Source: an uncultured Clostridia bacterium
GTDB lineage: Bacteria > Bacillota > Clostridia > Christensenellales > UBA1242
Length of the DNA stretch: 56,101 nt
Assembly: GCA_937925475.1 (NCBI GenBank)
Contig: CALEWH010000003.1
Location: 1-56,101 of the forward strand
Reading direction: 5' to 3'
The translations under genes were made by a program, and so were the position numbers. Shown here piece after piece: positions 1-28,119 of the stretch (within the stretch, counting starts at the first letter, position 1; every line of letters begins with the position of its first letter). Below the pieces are notes generated by a model. The model was not told the DNA's origin. It was given only the letters and a program-made list of their open reading frames with translations, and made no database searches.

Positions 1-600
1 AATTGTTATGTTATTGTAAAAATGAAAAGTGACAAGCTAGACGAGGCAGTGTATGAAATACAAAAGGGAGCATACTACTGCTATGTGACTGCATTGTATT
101 TCATACACTAACAAAGTATAGCAAACTTTGATTTATTATTGCAGTAAAAATGAAAAGAAACAAGTGAGATGAAATAATGTGAAAAAAATAAGACGGGAGC
201 ATACTATTGCTATGTGACCGCCTTATTTTTTGTATTCACAATTGTTATGTTATTGTAAAAATGAAAAGTGACAAGCTAGACGAGGCAGTGTATGAAATAC
301 AAAAAGGAGCATACTTCGCTATGTGACCGCATTGTATTTCATGCACTAACAAAGTATAGCAAACTTTGATTTATTATATTGCAGTAAAAATGAAAAGAAT
401 CAAGTGAGATGAAATAATGTAAAAAAAATAAGACGGGAGCATACTACTGCTATGTGACCGCCTTATTTTTTGTATTCACAATTGTTATGTTATTGTAAAA
501 ATGAAAAGTGACAAGCTAGACGAGGCAGTGTATGAAATACAAAAAGGAGCATACTTCGCTATGTGACCGCATTGTATTTCATGCACTAACAAAGTATAGC
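1..600. repeat. Composite tandem repeat with ~240-bp period, 2.5 copies (1-239, 240-479, 480-600). Each period holds two related modules (A ~135 bp, B ~105 bp). Each module has a conserved box GTAAAAATGAAAAG and a long hairpin. The hairpin apex GGAGCATACTnnTGCTATGTGACyGC is conserved while the stems differ.
   Basis: Direct reading: 241-360 is identical to 481-600. Copy 1 differs from copy 2 by a few substitutions and 1-nt indels. A-module hairpin arms: 49-63/94-108, 288-302/332-346, 528-542/572-586 (15 bp). B-module hairpin arms: 183-196/218-231 and 423-436/458-471 (14 bp, one mismatch, A-run before and T-run after). The array runs off the left window edge. Confidence 0.9.
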
Positions 601-617
601 GCAGTCAATTTTCATTT

Positions 618-1601
618 TTACCTGTACCAGATATTAACACTATCACTATACACCTCCACCCCATCATCATAGGAAACAGAGATGCTGATCATAACATTGG
701 ATTTGGTGAATTTGATGATACCTTGATCAATGAGAGTGTCATCAATGAAGGATATGTCGCCACCATTTAGAGTGTACCAGATGTCACCAGATGACACTGC
801 TGAAATGTCGATTGGAAGGTCTTTAATGAGAGTGATAAGTTTTAGATCATAGTTTTCGTTTGGCGCGATATCAGATGCTGTCAAAGTAATATAATCGTCA
901 TCGCCTTTATCCCACCAAATACCTTTTTGAAGGGCATTTGTTACATTTACTGTAAAGTGGTTTTTGATATCTGGGTTTTGTACAGATTTTACCCAAATTG
1001 TAGTAGTGCCATAGTTTATGCCAGTAACTTTTCCGCTTCTATCGACTGTGGCAATGTTTGGGTTTTCACTCCACCATTCTAGTCCACGCATATTTGCCGG
1101 AACAGTATATGGAACAATAGTGTGTTCGACAGATTTGCTACGATTTTTGTTTATATTTAGCACTCCTGGGACACCAACACCTAGGTCTGTCGAAAGATTG
1201 ATTGCTTGTATTTCGTCTTCTGCCACCTTGATAGTTATCGAAAACTGAACATCTGTTTTGTCTTGCGATGTAATGATAATTGTTGCTTCGCCAAGTTCGA
1301 GCCCAGTAACCATATGGGTCTCTTTGTCAACGCTACACACACTGCCACCACCGCTTATGCTTATGGCTTTGTTTGAGGCGTACTCAGGATAAACCTTTAT
1401 GCGAAGTTTGTCACCTTTGCCTTCGCCCTTACCTATTTTTATTATCGAGTTTTCTTTGTACTCATCACCTTCGCTATCAAGTACTGCAATGCGTTCGACC
1501 GCAATGTATGTGTATTGCGACAAGATGCGACCAGTAAACGATATGAAGTAGATTAGTAGAAATGGAAGAACTAATAAGATTGTTACAACTGCTTTTTTCA
1601 T
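618..1601 (-). CDS. Membrane-anchored protein with bacterial Ig-like (Big_2-type) domains
   Basis: 327-aa ORF. N-terminal hydrophobic anchor MKKAVVTILLVLPFLLIYFI. Big_2-like segments, e.g. NIATVDRSGKVTGINYGTTTIWV. The start lies 4 nt after the stop of the upstream permease gene. Confidence 0.6.
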   Translation of the reverse strand: MKKAVVTILLVLPFLLIYFISFTGRILSQYTYIAVERIAVLDSEGDEYKENSIIKIGKGEGKGDKLRIKVYPEYASNKAISISGGGSVCSVDKETHMVTGLELGEATIIITSQDKTDVQFSITIKVAEDEIQAINLSTDLGVGVPGVLNINKNRSKSVEHTIVPYTVPANMRGLEWWSENPNIATVDRSGKVTGINYGTTTIWVKSVQNPDIKNHFTVNVTNALQKGIWWDKGDDDYITLTASDIAPNENYDLKLITLIKDLPIDISAVSSGDIWYTLNGGDISFIDDTLIDQGIIKFTKSNVMISISVSYDDGVEVYSDSVNIWYR

Positions 1602-1605
1602 ACGC

Positions 1606-3201
1606 CTATATCTCCATCCTTGTGTAATAGTAGTTTAGGCGGATACTTAGCAAGTGTATGCGTCCAACAAGGTAGACCACGCTCACCGCAAGTGCGATAA
1701 ATATTCCTTTTATTCCAAACAAAGTGACTATCAAGCAAAGCAAAACTGGCAAAGCCAAAGCATATATCATACTTTTAGTGGTGTTTTTGCCTATGGTAGA
1801 AATCTCCGAGTTGTCGTACCAGTCCAATACAGGATGTTGGAGATCAAGGTCAAAACTATGACAAATATGACCTAGCGCCAAAATAGTCACAGTCAAACTA
1901 CTAAGTAGTGTAACCCAGACATTAAGGTTTGTAAATATTAGCGCAATAATTGTTGTGACCAAAATTGCACCAACAGTAAATATCGCATTAAAAGTAAGTT
2001 TTGCCATTGCTTGAACTTTGTAATTTATAGGAGTGGTTTTTGCAATATAGAAAGTGCCACCTTCCTTAGAAATCGCAATCGATGATATGGTGTTGCTCAT
2101 AAGTGCGATGATGCCAAGTATCAGCATATGCGAACCGAAAATCATATTTTGTCCCGCTTGATTAACTGCGATATTGATTAGCAGTTTGTCGTATGTAAAC
2201 ACGATAAGTGGCATAAATAGTGGAAACAAAAAGAATTGGAAAATGTAGCCTGGGCTACGGAAAACCATTCGGATTTCGTTTACAAGGAGTTCTGCAAAAA
2301 CGCTACGATATTTGAATGGTCGGTGTTTGCTTCTAATAACTGATGTGGTTTCCATATTGATGGTCGAGACCTTATAATAGAAAGGCTTAATAAGCGCAAA
2401 ACAAAGCACGACCAAAAGTAAACTTCCCATCAAAAATGCAAGTGGGAAATAGAAATATTTAAACGACAACATTGAAAGTGCAATTTGATAATATATCCAG
2501 ATTTTAGGGCCGGTCGAAACAAGCCAGTTGTTGATTTTAAGACCAGTCGAAACTTGTTTTTCGGCGATATTGATGACGCTTGAAAGTTTTGTAACAAAAC
2601 TCATATATGCAACAAACACAGTCGCCACAATTACTAAGATTGTGATTATTGAAAGCACAGTGTGTCTTTTGAAAAATTTTAAAACAAACATTATAGGAAT
2701 ACTAATTATGCTTGCAAGTGCAATAGGCAAAAGTGGAAGTAGCGGAATAATAAATATTAATGATGCAAAATACACTCCGCTAAGTTTGCCAAGCCAGCCC
2801 AAGCACAAAAATACGGGCAACATATAAAGTGTATTAAAGATGAGTTCGGACACATACAAAACCATAATTTTTGACACAAAAAGTTGGTTGAATGTGACAG
2901 GCAAAACCATTAATAGTTCGTTGTCTTTGCTAAGATACAAGGTGCTAATCGTGTTTGCAATCGCAAACGCAAACGATATGCCCTGTGTCACCAGCAACAC
3001 TATGCTTATAGCATTTTGGTCGACCTTTATAAACAACAAATTGAATATCTTTTTCATTATCAAATACAACACGAGCGTGATTGCAAGAATTAGACAAATC
3101 GACTTGAAAAGCGAGATAAAAAACGCCTTTTTATCACGCGATTTAAACAAATTGTATTTGTTGTCTAATTGAAATTTAAACAGTTTTAATATTTGTGACA
3201 T
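1606..3201 (-). CDS. Polytopic membrane protein, putative permease partner of the adjacent ABC ATPase
   Basis: 531-aa ORF that is hydrophobic throughout (>=10 predicted TM segments by eye). The start lies 3 nt downstream of the ABC ATPase stop, so an operon is likely. Confidence 0.5.
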   Translation of the reverse strand: MSQILKLFKFQLDNKYNLFKSRDKKAFFISLFKSICLILAITLVLYLIMKKIFNLLFIKVDQNAISIVLLVTQGISFAFAIANTISTLYLSKDNELLMVLPVTFNQLFVSKIMVLYVSELIFNTLYMLPVFLCLGWLGKLSGVYFASLIFIIPLLPLLPIALASIISIPIMFVLKFFKRHTVLSIITILVIVATVFVAYMSFVTKLSSVINIAEKQVSTGLKINNWLVSTGPKIWIYYQIALSMLSFKYFYFPLAFLMGSLLLVVLCFALIKPFYYKVSTINMETTSVIRSKHRPFKYRSVFAELLVNEIRMVFRSPGYIFQFFLFPLFMPLIVFTYDKLLINIAVNQAGQNMIFGSHMLILGIIALMSNTISSIAISKEGGTFYIAKTTPINYKVQAMAKLTFNAIFTVGAILVTTIIALIFTNLNVWVTLLSSLTVTILALGHICHSFDLDLQHPVLDWYDNSEISTIGKNTTKSMIYALALPVLLCLIVTLFGIKGIFIALAVSVVYLVGRIHLLSIRLNYYYTRMEI

Positions 3202-4001: not shown

Positions 4002-5447
4002 TTAATCTTCATATTTTTGTTTTGGCACGCGTTTACGATAGCGACCTTTTTCGATGTTTGAAGCAATTTTGATGTTGCGAACATTGAAGTGGTCATCTCC
4101 CACTCTACAAAGTTGGAGATAAAACCAATAGAACACCATACAGAATACGCTATAAAGTATGTATATCATAAGCATATATAGCGGATAGAATGTGTACCCA
4201 CCCCAAGTGACCGGATACTTGCTTGTAAACGCCAAGAACGGCAATGCTTTAAGTACTGTTGTGTCGAAAATGTAGAAATAGTTTACTTTATTGAAAAATA
4301 TACTTGTAGGGTCGTACCAAACACAGTTGGCAAGTAGTCCCGAGATTACGCAGAACATAAAATACATTGTAAAGCCAATAAAGAAATGTTTGAAACCGCT
4401 CTTTTTAGGTCTATCCACCACCCTAAGTGCAACCATTAGAAGTGGAATAACAAAAACCCAAGTGTGTTCGATGTAAAAGTGGATATTCCAGTAAGAAAGC
4501 ATACCTTCTTTTACGTCCGGAACGCAAAATGCTATCATCGAACCAGGAACATTTGCCAGCAATACAAAGTCAAAAAAAGCTGGTTTTTTAATAAGAATAG
4601 CGATAAGTACAAGGTACGAACCAAGATTGCAAAGTTGGAAAGGAAGGCGGGACATCACGAAGTCCATAAGGTAAATTTGGTTGTAGTGCAAAAACAAGAA
4701 CAACGCCAAAAATGTACAAAGGCTAACACGACTCTCACGATCTTTAAAGCGATATATAAAATACAAGACCACGAAAATAAGTAATATTGTAAGAAGCCAT
4801 AACACGTGTGGAAGTGAAAAGACTTTCATATATCTTTTTGAAAAACCAAAAAGCGATTGTGGAAGTGTAACCGGAACTGTCACAAGCAAAGCAAACGGCA
4901 ACACTCCAAAAAAGTACGCCCATTCAGTTTTGTTTTTTACATCAAATTTGTGTCCAGCGCAAAACCTAAGAAGTATAGGGAATGCAATAAGGATAATAAG
5001 TTCGAGCGAAAACTCAATGTGTCTTACAATTTCAGGTGCCCAAATAGCGCGTCCCGAGTTTGTGGTGAAATAGTACAAAAACCTATCATAATAAGCAAGA
5101 CAAACTAGCGCAACTGGAAGACAAAAATATATCGCCCAGTTTTTAAAAATGCGTTTTTTGTAGAAGGCAGCGCAAGGATATACAATAAAGGCAAATGTCA
5201 TACCCCATCTAAGCAAACTTTGCAAAACATCTTTATCTTTATAATAACTCTCGCCATATGTTCCGCCATTAATAACCCATATAAAGCGGTCGTTTAGAAA
5301 ACTGCGCAAAAATGCAAGCACAAAAAGAGATATTGAAAGTATCTTCAATATCAAGGCGACTTTTTTCTCACCAAGTTTGTTTTTGCATATTATTAGCGGA
5401 ACTACTGTGGCGACAACTACACCGAGGATTATAAATATGTTTAGCAT
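4002..5447 (-). CDS. Polytopic integral membrane protein of unknown function (C-terminal half possibly YwaF/TMEM164-like)
   Basis: 481-aa hydrophobic ORF. The motif LPFQLCNLGSY resembles the LPLHLC motif of the YwaF family. The functional assignment is tentative. Confidence 0.45.
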   Translation of the reverse strand: MLNIFIILGVVVATVVPLIICKNKLGEKKVALILKILSISLFVLAFLRSFLNDRFIWVINGGTYGESYYKDKDVLQSLLRWGMTFAFIVYPCAAFYKKRIFKNWAIYFCLPVALVCLAYYDRFLYYFTTNSGRAIWAPEIVRHIEFSLELIILIAFPILLRFCAGHKFDVKNKTEWAYFFGVLPFALLVTVPVTLPQSLFGFSKRYMKVFSLPHVLWLLTILLIFVVLYFIYRFKDRESRVSLCTFLALFLFLHYNQIYLMDFVMSRLPFQLCNLGSYLVLIAILIKKPAFFDFVLLANVPGSMIAFCVPDVKEGMLSYWNIHFYIEHTWVFVIPLLMVALRVVDRPKKSGFKHFFIGFTMYFMFCVISGLLANCVWYDPTSIFFNKVNYFYIFDTTVLKALPFLAFTSKYPVTWGGYTFYPLYMLMIYILYSVFCMVFYWFYLQLCRVGDDHFNVRNIKIASNIEKGRYRKRVPKQKYED

Positions 5448-10929: not shown

Positions 10930-11022
10930 CTTAGCCTCCCATATCTATATTATTATATAACAAACTCGTTCTTTTTTACAAATTATTGTATACGACTTTT
11001 AAAAAAATATAGAGCATATGCT

Positions 11023-12786
11023 CTATATTAGTTTTTCCATTTCCTTTAACGCCCAATTAAGTTCGCCAAAGATAGTATCATATGGAGTGTCTGTAAGCAA
11101 ATCAACTCCTGTGCGTTTTAGTATCTCATTTGGATAGTCGCTATCGCCACTCTTCAAAAACTGCATATATTTGTCAGTTTTGCCCGCCAAAACATCATTG
11201 GCAATCGAGCAAGCACTAGTGATGCCTGTCGCATACTTAAACACATAATATGCTCTATAAAAATGACTTATTCGATACCATTTATAACCGTTTTCTTTAA
11301 TGCAAGTGACCTTATTTCCGGCGTATTTTTTATATAACTCATACCACTTGTCATTTAGCATATCTTTTGTTACGCTTTCGCCTTTGGAGATTTTTGTATG
11401 CAACCAGTATTCCCATTCGCTATACATAGTTTGATTGTACAAAGTACCAACGATAGTATTTACAAATCTATCAAGCACAAACATCTTCTCGCTTGATTTT
11501 GTACAAGTACTATACAAATATTTCATAAGCAAAACTTCATTGACTGTACTTGCTATCTCAGCTGTAAAAATGTCGTTGTCGCTAGTAGGATATGGTTGGT
11601 TTTCCATACTGTATTGGTGGTGCATAGCGTGGCCAAGTTCGTGAGCAAGTGTAAACATACAGTCTATTGTGCCCACATTATTAAGCATAATATATGAATG
11701 AACTCCATACACGCCCAAATTGTATCCACCTGTATCCTTGTTTGGAGTAGGATAAACATCTATCCAGTTGTTATCCATAGCATTTTTTATGCGTCTGACA
11801 TAATCTTCACCCATTGGCGCTAATGCTTTCAAAACAGTTTCTTTCATTGTTTCGTAGTCAAGTTTGCGTGTCCACTTGCCCATTGGCGCATTTAGGTCAT
11901 AGGTGTATAGTTTGTCATATCCCAAAACTTTTTTCTTTATCGCATTGTATTTGTGCAAGTATTTTAGGTTTTTATTAACATTGGCGATAAGATTTGTGAA
12001 TATTTCGCGTGGCAAATTGTCGCCATATAGCGCTTGTGACAATGTGTCACCATAATGGAAAATATCACTGTATGTTTCGTCCGCCTTGACGCTACTTGTA
12101 AGGGTCGCACAAATTGTATCACCTAGTGAGTTGTATCCGGCATACAATTTTTCAAACGCTTGTTTTCGGATTTCACGATTTGGATTTTGCAAATATCCTA
12201 TAAAATTGGCAGTGTTTAGTGGCAAGGTCTTTCCGCCTGCTTTTATGTCGTCAAACTTTACATCAACCACATCTATATTGTCAAATATCTTACTAAATCC
12301 GCTTGCAAAACTACTGACTTTGGACATAATAAGTTCTTCGCTCTCACTTAGAGTGTGTGCCCTGTGACGCTTGGTCTCCATCAAATCAAGTTTGTGCGAA
12401 GAAAAATCTTTGTCGGCCATGAGTTTGTCGAGATACTTGTCGGACAATGTGGCAAGTTCGCTATCCACCCACGCAAAAGTTTTGCTGACCTTTTCTTCCA
12501 AATATTCGACTTCATTAAACAACGCAACACTTGTGCTCTTGCTCATATCTTCGCTTCTAAGCAAATATGCATAACCCGCAATTTTTTCAAGCATCATTCC
12601 CATAGTGTCTTGATACTCGAAAAAGTCCAAAAGCACTTTGCGACTGTCCAACTTGCCTTTGTATTTTGGCGCATCTTTCAACATTTCTTCGACCTTATTC
12701 ATATCGGCTTTTAGGTCGGCGCCAGTCTTGTATATGTGGGTCAAATCCCATTTGTATTTGCTATCAATAGAACTGCGTTTTTTCAT
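11023..12786 (-). CDS. pepF: Oligoendopeptidase F (M3B metallopeptidase)
   Basis: 587 aa. Zinc motif HELGHAMHH. AGGAG SD upstream. Confidence 0.9.
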   Translation of the reverse strand: MKKRSSIDSKYKWDLTHIYKTGADLKADMNKVEEMLKDAPKYKGKLDSRKVLLDFFEYQDTMGMMLEKIAGYAYLLRSEDMSKSTSVALFNEVEYLEEKVSKTFAWVDSELATLSDKYLDKLMADKDFSSHKLDLMETKRHRAHTLSESEELIMSKVSSFASGFSKIFDNIDVVDVKFDDIKAGGKTLPLNTANFIGYLQNPNREIRKQAFEKLYAGYNSLGDTICATLTSSVKADETYSDIFHYGDTLSQALYGDNLPREIFTNLIANVNKNLKYLHKYNAIKKKVLGYDKLYTYDLNAPMGKWTRKLDYETMKETVLKALAPMGEDYVRRIKNAMDNNWIDVYPTPNKDTGGYNLGVYGVHSYIMLNNVGTIDCMFTLAHELGHAMHHQYSMENQPYPTSDNDIFTAEIASTVNEVLLMKYLYSTCTKSSEKMFVLDRFVNTIVGTLYNQTMYSEWEYWLHTKISKGESVTKDMLNDKWYELYKKYAGNKVTCIKENGYKWYRISHFYRAYYVFKYATGITSACSIANDVLAGKTDKYMQFLKSGDSDYPNEILKRTGVDLLTDTPYDTIFGELNWALKEMEKLI

Positions 12787-27173: not shown

Positions 27174-27247
27174 TGGAGCAGGTAGCGGGAATCGAACCCG
27201 CAACTAATGCTTGGGAAGCACTTGTTTTACCACTAAACTATACCTGC
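27174..27247 (-). tRNA. tRNA-Gly (anticodon CCC), CCA encoded
   Basis: The reverse complement folds as a cloverleaf: acceptor GCAGGTA/TACCTGC, D stem GTTT/AAAC, anticodon stem AGTGC/GCATT with loop TTCCCAA, T arm GCGGG-TTCGATT-CCCGC, discriminator U, then CCA. Confidence 0.9.
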
Positions 27248-28044: not shown

Positions 28045-28119
28045 TGGTGCGCCTAGAAGGATTCGAACCCTCGCTAATGGTTCCGAAGACCATTGTGCTA
28101 TCCATTACACCATAAGCGC
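28045..28119 (-). tRNA. tRNA-Arg (anticodon UCG), CCA encoded
   Basis: Reverse complement: acceptor GCGCTTA/TAGGCGC (one G-U), anticodon stem ATGGT/ACCAT with loop CTTCGGA, T arm GAGGG-TTCGAAT-CCTTC, discriminator A, then CCA. Confidence 0.85.

Follow-up and report, generated by a model that had tools for sequence, protein, structure and literature searches.

ERIC elements, whose centre is extremely conserved, have been a fingerprinting target for three decades. An ERIC is a 127-bp imperfect palindrome found in transcribed intergenic regions, with an RNase E-mediated effect on mRNA stability that depends on orientation (PMC2229807, PMC10969869, PMC2267715); in Yersinia an RNase E site is unmasked, again in an orientation-dependent manner (PMC2229807, PMC10969869). 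In the reviews and surveys consulted, which reach to 2024, the described range of ERIC comprises only Enterobacteriaceae, Vibrionaceae and other Gammaproteobacteria (PMC10969869, PMC3184786, PMC2267715, PMC2229807).

Here we analyse a 56,101-nucleotide stretch of DNA from an uncultured Clostridia bacterium (the window), which begins with a tandem array of hairpins. What is new, on the scans and alignments described below, is the presence of the ERIC-core hairpin in Clostridia, where it stands in the spacers of rRNA operons (in sense) and on unrelated terminator stems.

The tandem array at the start of the window

The array holds 2.5 copies of a repeat with a 240-bp period (97% matches over 1-600 in Tandem Repeats Finder). 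Over 224 nt copies 2 and 3 agree at 99%, and copy 1 deviates at several positions; units that differ in this way are separate copies, not the product of assembling a single unit over and over. As a preliminary description of the window had it, the array is built of two hairpin modules, A and B, with a common 14-nt box and a common apex, which we delimit to 22-23 nt. We located the basal stems in the sequence and find, again in agreement with that description, that they are unlike while the apex is kept: GTGTATGAAATACAA / TTGTATTTCAT[A/G]CAC in A and AAAAAATAAGACGG / CCGCCTTATTTTTT in B. The box, GTAAAAATGAAAAG, occurs five times on the plus strand of the window. The core at the apex, GGAGCATACT(N1-3)GCTATGTGAC, likewise has five copies, on the plus strand only, at 67-89 in A1, 196-218 in B1, 306-327 in A2, 436-458 in B2 and 546-567 in A3; there is no further core in the 56 kb outside the array, and the shuffle expectation is 0. 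The 240-nt unit folds at -64.9 kcal/mol on the plus strand (z -6.1 against shuffles) and at -47.5 kcal/mol on the minus strand (z -3.7).

All modules lie on the plus strand. The first 15 nt of the window (1-15, AATTGTTATGTTATT) are the tail end of one more B-type module, the rest of which falls beyond the edge; they are identical to 240-254 and 480-494, the stretches after B1 and B2. Module A1 (16-143) has its left inverted repeat and box at 16-33 and its basal stem at 48-63 and 94-109; module B1 (144-254) has its box at 144-157 and a terminator-like hairpin at 183-231, with an A-run before it and a T-run after it. The same layout recurs in A2 (255-383; box 255-272, basal stem 287-302 and 332-347) and in B2 (384-494; box 384-397, hairpin 420-474). 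The last module, A3 (495-621), is bounded by terminal inverted repeats at 495-512 and 604-621 and has its basal stem at 527-542 and 572-587. As to the proposal that the array runs on past the window edge, the window does start 15 nt inside a further B tail, but other strains have a single B-A pair.

We agree that the array is neither coding nor CRISPR. The 29-codon open reading frame of copy 1 is frame-shifted in copies 2 and 3, as had been noticed, the cause being a loop that is 1 nt shorter, and the 'spacers' that would separate the cores of a CRISPR are repeated themselves. Searched with Rfam 15, positions 1-700 gave no family at gathering score and nothing meaningful at E <= 10. ARAGORN found no tRNA or tmRNA in the array and only two distant tRNAs, and the AT-rich motif AAGATTAAAA, picked up from other Tandem Repeats Finder rows of the window, is no more frequent than chance predicts.

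A sixth copy of the box, overlooked in the preliminary description, lies inverted at 604-621 (18 nt, 94% complementary). Not part of the tandem array, this copy includes the stop codon (618-620) of the Big_2-domain protein gene (618-1601, minus strand), which therefore ends within the right inverted repeat of A3; this gene is the last of a TMEM164 / ABC ATPase / ABC permease / Big_2 cluster. With the boxes at 495-512 and 604-621 as its two ends, A3 is an imperfect palindrome of 127 bp and forms a single long hairpin (-51.3 kcal/mol and z -9.7 on the plus strand, -42.0 kcal/mol on the minus strand). Because the inverted copy closes a palindrome, a terminal inverted repeat accounts for the box better, on this arrangement, than a promoter spacer does. 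Module B is shorter than A and has neither a right inverted repeat nor a palindrome of ~127 bp. The inverted-repeat sequence of A3, GTAAAAATGAAAAGTGAC, is unlike the TATACTC ends of ERIC, and no TA target-site duplication is visible flanking the elements in the window or in the related locus L039. A degenerate right inverted repeat in the internal A copies was considered and dropped, the stretch in question being a better match to the left flank of B in L039.

The core in other genomes and in rRNA operons

An exact-core scan of one genome per species, with a 20-base pattern in 596 Gb for which we calculate ~4 matches by chance, gave seven loci. Three of them, in Selenomonas and two Malaciobacter, are without hairpin context and look like chance. 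In the other four the core tips a hairpin whose stem is unrelated: these are a Christensenella-like MAG related to the window, with a solitary copy of the core on another contig (L003); a gammaproteobacterial MAG with two inverted ~170-bp palindromic copies at separate sites (L004); a MAG labelled Bacteroidales (L007); and [Eubacterium] yurii (L009). The core copies in L003 and L007 are at gene 3' ends, and for the window, L003 and L004, transcription from the closest upstream gene or tRNA would yield the core as antisense. Scanning metagenomes for the core added 13 more stretches, nine of which resemble the E. yurii copy. Recurring as it does in both scans, the core is not a local duplication only, an outcome that the preliminary description had allowed for. 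A scan of viral contigs gave 0 matches to the core, blastn of the 240-bp unit against plasmids gave no real match, and a full-text search of the literature for the core sequence returned unrelated primers only. The lead to ERIC came from the arms of the ~170-bp palindromes of L004.

Among the loci that we scanned with Rfam, copies of the core are found in rRNA operons, in 23S-5S and 16S-23S spacers and between tRNA and 5S, with 2-4 copies per operon. Every one of these copies (18/18, from 7 loci, some overlapping) is in the rRNA sense and lies between mature RNAs, and each is the tip of an irregular 100-125-nt hairpin. The carriers are Peptostreptococcales, [Eubacterium] yurii included, and their spacer core shows compensatory changes. 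An rRNA spacer carrying the hairpins matched no family in Rfam 15, also at E <= 10. Literature searches on ERIC-like elements in Firmicutes or rRNA operons found nothing relevant, and we found no prior description of ERIC-like hairpins in the rRNA spacers of Peptostreptococcales.

Relation of the apex to the centre of ERIC

We assembled a query for the ERIC centre from the published primers ERIC1R and ERIC2, both of which occur in 205 papers. At 100% identity this centre is present in all 5426 of 5426 complete E. coli genomes, at a median of 9 places per genome. We then compared ERIC copies from E. coli, Citrobacter, Proteus, Klebsiella and Pectobacterium. Their centre reads CCCCAG-GAGCUUAC-AUAA-GUAAGUGA-CUGGGG in E. 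coli, CCCCAGGAGCATAGATAACTATGTGACTGGGG in Citrobacter (L029) and AAGAGCATACATAAGTATGTGAC in Proteus (L030). The window arms GGAGCATA...TATGTGAC recur in the Citrobacter and Proteus copies, all five window cores carry GGAGCATAC...TATGTGAC, and the E. coli core and the window core are one compensatory pair apart. Judged by its sequence, the window apex is the central core of ERIC/IRU, GGAGC-WUAC-loop-GUAW-GUGAC. The earlier remark that the array could not be placed in any familiar RNA family has to be revised to this extent, given that the same arms are found in Citrobacter and Proteus ERIC.

A sequence profile of 28 members, built with the window excluded, finds exactly the five window modules in the 56 kb (E 2e-6 to 7e-5, with 1.5e-5 for A1, 7.3e-5 for B1 and 2.9e-6 for A2), and all other matches are at E >= 0.6. 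How far the likeness extends beyond the core differs between elements. An ERIC-only covariance model (R1), built from nine enterobacterial ERICs and searched over 220 kb of loci, matched 17 rRNA-spacer hairpins and the two L004 copies, in each case over the whole model and on the core strand, with scores of 16.7-28.7 bits, a best E of 3e-4 and no off-target match in the 220 kb. The E-values of this model are rough. The same full-length model, with filters off, gave at best a misaligned 13.6 bits (E 0.57) against the window modules, and it left L003, L007 and L012 unmatched. These failures act as a control: since generic hairpins that bear the core fail the model, the spacer copies resemble ERIC beyond the core.

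Flanking sequence gives weaker signals. Anchored pairwise tests on the flanks alone are weakly positive for the rRNA-spacer copies. Beyond the 22-nt core, the resemblance of A to ERIC and to rRNA-spacer copies is at most suggestive (17-41 of 500 shuffles do as well), and shuffle-tested alignment finds no resemblance of the flanks of B to either. A profile of the family flanks has no match at the window modules, its matches in the whole window being at E 0.6 or worse, and a profile of the ERIC flanks has a single match in the Firmicute loci (E 0.15), away from the elements. Module A and one subtype of the rRNA-spacer hairpins have CGAGGCAG, TGAAATAC and CTAACRAAG (CTAACAAAG) in common at equal offsets. 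On these models and alignments we distinguish a first class that is ERIC-like over its full length (ERIC itself, L004 and the rRNA spacers) from a second class in which the ERIC core sits on other stems (window modules A and B, L003, L007 and L012).

Structure and strand of the apex

The apex has the form 5'-G-GA-G-CAUA(N)-loop-(N')UAUG-U-GA-C-3', comprising a G-C pair, two tandem G.A mismatches, an invariant G.U, a stem of 5-6 bp and a variable loop of 4-8 nt. We counted pairs in 32 distinct aligned copies from all sources, which span several phyla. The apex helix is paired at 91.5% in these copies; one stem pair is A-U in 22, G-C in 5, U-A in 4 and G-U in 1, with no copy left unpaired there, and the G.U pair is present in 32/32. 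These counts support the earlier view that the apex hairpin is under structural constraint. The two positions that separate the G.U from the closing G-C read as tandem G.A/A.G mismatches, and they covary (GGAGC..GUGAC to GGCGC..GUAAC) or shift from G.A to A.A.

The invariant G.U and the tandem G.A exist on the core strand only, the opposite strand giving C.A and pyrimidine mismatches. Folding of E. coli ERIC gives -50.5 kcal/mol on the core strand and -36.1 on the opposite strand; for an rRNA-spacer copy (L017) the values are -21.2 (z -3.4) and -6.0 (z +0.25). As the antisense of L017 folds no better than shuffles, the spacer copies are RNA hairpins rather than DNA palindromes. The preliminary description placed its promoter-like elements on the minus strand; the structured motif is on the plus strand, which corresponds to the rRNA strand of the operon copies. 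That description had also pointed to a substitution in the A basal stem (CATACAC to CATGCAC) that retains a U-G pair on the plus-strand RNA. As an argument on strand this does not hold: L039 and L040 carry the reciprocal variant, GTGCATG/CATACAC, which makes C.A on the plus strand and G.U on the minus strand, so that the A basal stem indicates no strand.

Several other identities for the core were tried and rejected. A mimic of the anticodon loop is at odds with the loop length, which ranges over 4-8 nt, and a K-turn with the lack of a 3-nt bulge and with the ERIC helix being continuous on either side of the tandem G.A. The ssoA/CS-6 sequences of rolling-circle plasmids have only a partial hexamer match, on the wrong strand, and for a CRP-like site with a promoter within the core the spacing is wrong.

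The locus in related strains

The Big_2 cluster is syntenic with the window in L001, L023, L026 and L039. The window Big_2 is 65% identical to that of a syntenic 'uncultured Christensenella sp.' MAG; exact-protein look-ups of the window Big_2 and permease returned no identical record. By this synteny and identity the host of the window, a gut Firmicute, is Christensenellales-like; like [Eubacterium] yurii it belongs to the Bacillota. Few contigs were reached from the proteins of the window itself, and loci that read through the site were reached via members of the 90%-identity cluster of Big_2. Read in the direction of the window, L039 and L040, which stem from independent assemblies, both run from a 600-aa gene through a 33-aa HMA-like mini-ORF and a terminator (T0) to a single B, then a single A and the Big_2 stop. 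The elements thus sit between convergent genes, directly after the Big_2 stop, and the B-A pair matches the terminal B2-A3 unit of the window, though a single pair could also be a collapsed short-read assembly. Five further loci (L023-L025, L037 and L038), whose Big_2 is 93% identical to that of the window, have no element within 20 kb, and instead show an ordinary terminator and a different downstream gene. The contig of L001 breaks 47 nt past the Big_2 stop, inside an A-type element; that of a more distant relative in which we found no ERIC-core element (L027) also ends soon after Big_2.

Copy number by strain is therefore none, one B-A pair, or at least 2.5 units. With one pair in L039/L040 and none in closer relatives, the window would represent a tandem amplification of the B-A pair. 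Mobility of the element is suggested only by its presence or absence among strains whose flanking genes differ too. No transposase was seen near the locus. A MAFFT alignment suggested that the core had been inserted into a hairpin still empty in L023, an idea that we rejected, the alignment being no better than dinucleotide shuffles (z ~0).

Module B as a probable terminator

Module B had been called terminator-like for the A/U-runs that flank its hairpin, and this is borne out on both strands: a stem of ~14 bp is followed by U6 on the plus strand and by U8 on the minus strand. Module B was missed by a simple terminator scan because its loop is longer than that scan allows. Local alignment of B with the neighbouring terminator T0 of L039 scores 45, against 17.6 +/- 2.8 for shuffles (0/2000 as good), and on this alignment B is a paralogue of the ordinary terminator T0. 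The loop of T0, moreover, looks like a decayed core. With its minus-strand stem followed by eight U, B2 is probably the intrinsic terminator of the Big_2/ABC operon.

Discussion

Our analysis leads us to favour, with moderate confidence, a reading in which positions 1-621 are an amplified ERIC-core palindromic pair placed between convergent operons, with its members forming RNA hairpins at 3' ends and B as a predicted bidirectional terminator. How could such an array work? Both A and B would be transcribed as 3' parts of the flanking operons, without promoters of their own. From its stem and U-runs, B would act as an intrinsic terminator in both directions, and the Big_2 mRNA would read through the antisense of A3 and stop at the antisense of B2, where a 14-bp stem is followed by U8. 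Module A would then be a 3'-UTR stem-loop that, by analogy with ERIC in Yersinia, may influence mRNA stability in an orientation-dependent manner. The array itself may have grown by unequal recombination between 240-bp units, and the conserved apex could be the recognition module for a putative trans-acting factor.

More generally, it is conceivable, and we hold this tentatively, that the ERIC centre is an RNA module common to several phyla: a tandem-G.A hairpin with an invariant G.U, read by a putative conserved factor, which in Peptostreptococcales would lie in pre-rRNA between mature rRNAs and tRNAs, and in Christensenellales-like bacteria would have been grafted onto local terminator stems and amplified. 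If true, this would explain why the centre of ERIC, and not its ends, is the most conserved part. The Clostridial cores point either to a function at the RNA level or to repeated horizontal spread of a minimal module, and the rRNA operons of [Eubacterium] yurii and the ERIC copies of E. coli are systems in which these ideas can be tested.

We think it unlikely that the host uses the apex as an RNA signal, to be bound or processed by a conserved protein or RNase, for which the array would serve as a multi-site decoy, sponge or processing platform, and not merely as terminators. Such a signal would fit an apex that is near-invariant in Enterobacterales, in a gammaproteobacterial MAG, in Peptostreptococcales and in Christensenellales-like genomes while its surroundings vary, as it would fit the invariant G.U, the covariation at non-canonical positions, and rRNA-operon copies that are in the rRNA sense in 18 of 18 cases and fold only in that sense. 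However, we found no candidate protein and no co-occurring gene, the nearest gene or tRNA upstream would read the core in antisense at three loci (window, L003 and L004), and closely related strains do without the element.

The preliminary description had each module preceded by a minus-strand promoter of its own, and an array of independently transcribed small structured RNAs, with a promoter per module or per 240-bp unit and B as their terminator, is to our mind quite unlikely. The hairpins are strongly structured and B has U-runs on both strands; a plus-strand TTCACA-16-TGT-AAAAAT directly after each B would give an A+B transcript of ~210 nt, and a minus-strand TTGTCA-16-TAACAT occurs in every unit. 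Yet the promoter matches are all 9/12, they fall on both strands, and their number barely exceeds that in shuffles (7 against 3.7 +/- 1.9, the repeated copies not being independent). The box, which would have to supply the promoter spacer or -10, has an inverted copy at 604-621 that closes a palindrome, a better fit to an inverted repeat; family members elsewhere lie inside longer transcripts (rRNA operons) or at gene 3' ends (L003, L007); and there are strains with a single pair and strains with none.

A purely DNA-level selfish element, that is, a MITE or non-autonomous transposon whose hairpin acts as DNA (as a site for a transposase or recombinase, a cruciform or a single-strand hairpin) and whose effect on RNA, if any, is incidental, we regard as improbable. 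Terminal inverted repeats, the 127-bp size, presence or absence by strain and the two inverted ~170-bp copies at separate sites of L004 would all suit a MITE, and ERIC has been so classed (PMC2229807, PMC3184786). But in MITEs it is the ends that are conserved, whereas here it is the centre. The G.U and tandem G.A turn into C.A and pyrimidine mismatches on the other strand, the rRNA-spacer copies are not DNA palindromes (their antisense folds no better than shuffles), and neither a transposase nearby nor a target-site duplication was seen. An assembly artefact, in which a dispersed or single repeat was falsely concatenated at the contig end, is very improbable: the array does lie at a contig edge, and L001 ends inside an A-type element and L027 soon after Big_2, but the units differ at defined positions (97% matches) with regular A/B alternation, and the B2-A3 unit recurs in the independent assemblies L039 and L040.

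The amplified ERIC-core pair, our preferred reading, also bears on annotation, since a known repeat family that is absent from RNA databases can present itself, at the end of a contig, as a 'novel hairpin RNA array'. ERIC-like repeats, moreover, break short-read assemblies.

Comparison with known systems

Small non-coding modular hairpin repeats at gene ends, possibly acting as terminators or RNase targets, are familiar from SPRITE, BOX and RUP in Streptococcus pneumoniae and from Correia/NEMIS, and BOX is like the window array in being modular with a repeated internal module; unlike the window array, none of them has the ERIC core, and there is no sequence relationship. Head-to-tail repeats of small structured RNAs are also found in Listeria LhrC1-4 and in the arrays of ToxI type III antitoxins. 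Those arrays have demonstrated promoters or processing and a partner gene, whereas for the window neither promoter evidence nor a partner gene was found, and the window array falls to one or zero copies in close strains.

The rRNA-spacer hairpins of Peptostreptococcales are nearer, having the same core with compensatory variants, tandem copies and the short flank strings in common with A. They differ in matching the ERIC model over their full length, in lying inside a stable-RNA transcript and always in sense, and in not being DNA palindromes, with many G.U and G.A pairs and an antisense that does not fold.

The closest described system is ERIC/IRU/RU-1. The arms of its 22-nt central hairpin are identical in the window and in Citrobacter and Proteus ERIC, module A is likewise a 127-bp imperfect palindrome that forms a long single hairpin, better on one strand, and the window elements, too, are intergenic and at gene 3' ends. 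On the other hand, the host of the window is a Firmicute, neither its flanks nor its inverted repeats resemble the ERIC consensus, and the window modules fail the full-length ERIC covariance model. Unlike ERIC, finally, the window elements are amplified in tandem as a two-element unit, in which the core of B sits on a local terminator stem.

Results and Discussion

The stop codon of Big_2, the gene that adjoins the array, falls within element A's right-hand inverted repeat, both in the window (618-621) and in L039 (5842-5848), a relative's locus that carries one B-A pair; the counterpart in L023, a further locus with Big_2 synteny, is at 10982-10990. The final Big_2 codon varies among strains (AGG, ATG or AGA), and homology with strains without element A stops at the Big_2 stop codon. 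Two short-read contigs end shortly past this codon. One of them (L001, 13420) ends 47 nt beyond it, within the A-type element, as would be expected if this repeat interrupted the assembly. The other (L027, 11120) ends 145 nt beyond it, and in this relative an ERIC-core element was not found.

The terminator T0, a module B paralogue on the minus strand of L039 (6085-6175), is located 3' of an HMA-like mini-ORF of 33 aa. Since the T0 loop, GAATCAACTCTTGTAAC, can be aligned to the ERIC core, T0 is probably a decayed third element. The 33-aa ORF, MEAKVYLLKDLECAACSAKIEKALNTFDEINID (L039 6186-6287, minus strand; L040, the second locus with a single B-A pair, 2918-3019), aligns with no more than positions 1-26 of the heavy-metal-associated domain, slightly under the Pfam cut-off, and resembles a truncated remnant of a CopZ-like sequence. 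No Pfam family matches the 600-aa gene that adjoins this ORF in both loci.

Across the whole window the sole Rfam or ARAGORN calls are tRNA-Gly(CCC) (27174-27247) and tRNA-Arg(TCG) (28045-28119), both on the minus strand. In L026, another relative's locus, a stretch of ~165 nt (11196-11360), called by neither program, adjoins tRNA-Ser(GCU). Read on the tRNA strand, its 3' end repeats ~16 bases of the 3' end of that tRNA gene (TGGCGCGGAAAGAGGG on the locus plus strand), but the remainder is unrelated sequence. The stretch may be a tRNA-gene fragment remaining from an integration event.

ERIC-like long hairpins were also seen in [Eubacterium] yurii-like contigs, at 2-4 per rRNA operon, placed between 16S, 23S, tRNAs and 5S and all in rRNA sense (L019 696-798, 1121-1247, 4381-4485 and 4721-4848; L016 10401-10816; L017 1850-2111; L011 3502-3860). 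We found neither a description nor an Rfam family for these rRNA-operon hairpins.

Two ERIC-like palindromes of ~170 bp also occur, in inverted orientation, in the locus of a gammaproteobacterial MAG (L004 1881-2029, plus strand, and about 4370-4520, minus strand), where they bound a segment of ~2.5 kb that contains two ORFs and tRNA-Ser(CGA). This arrangement of paired palindromes around a segment resembles a composite transposon.
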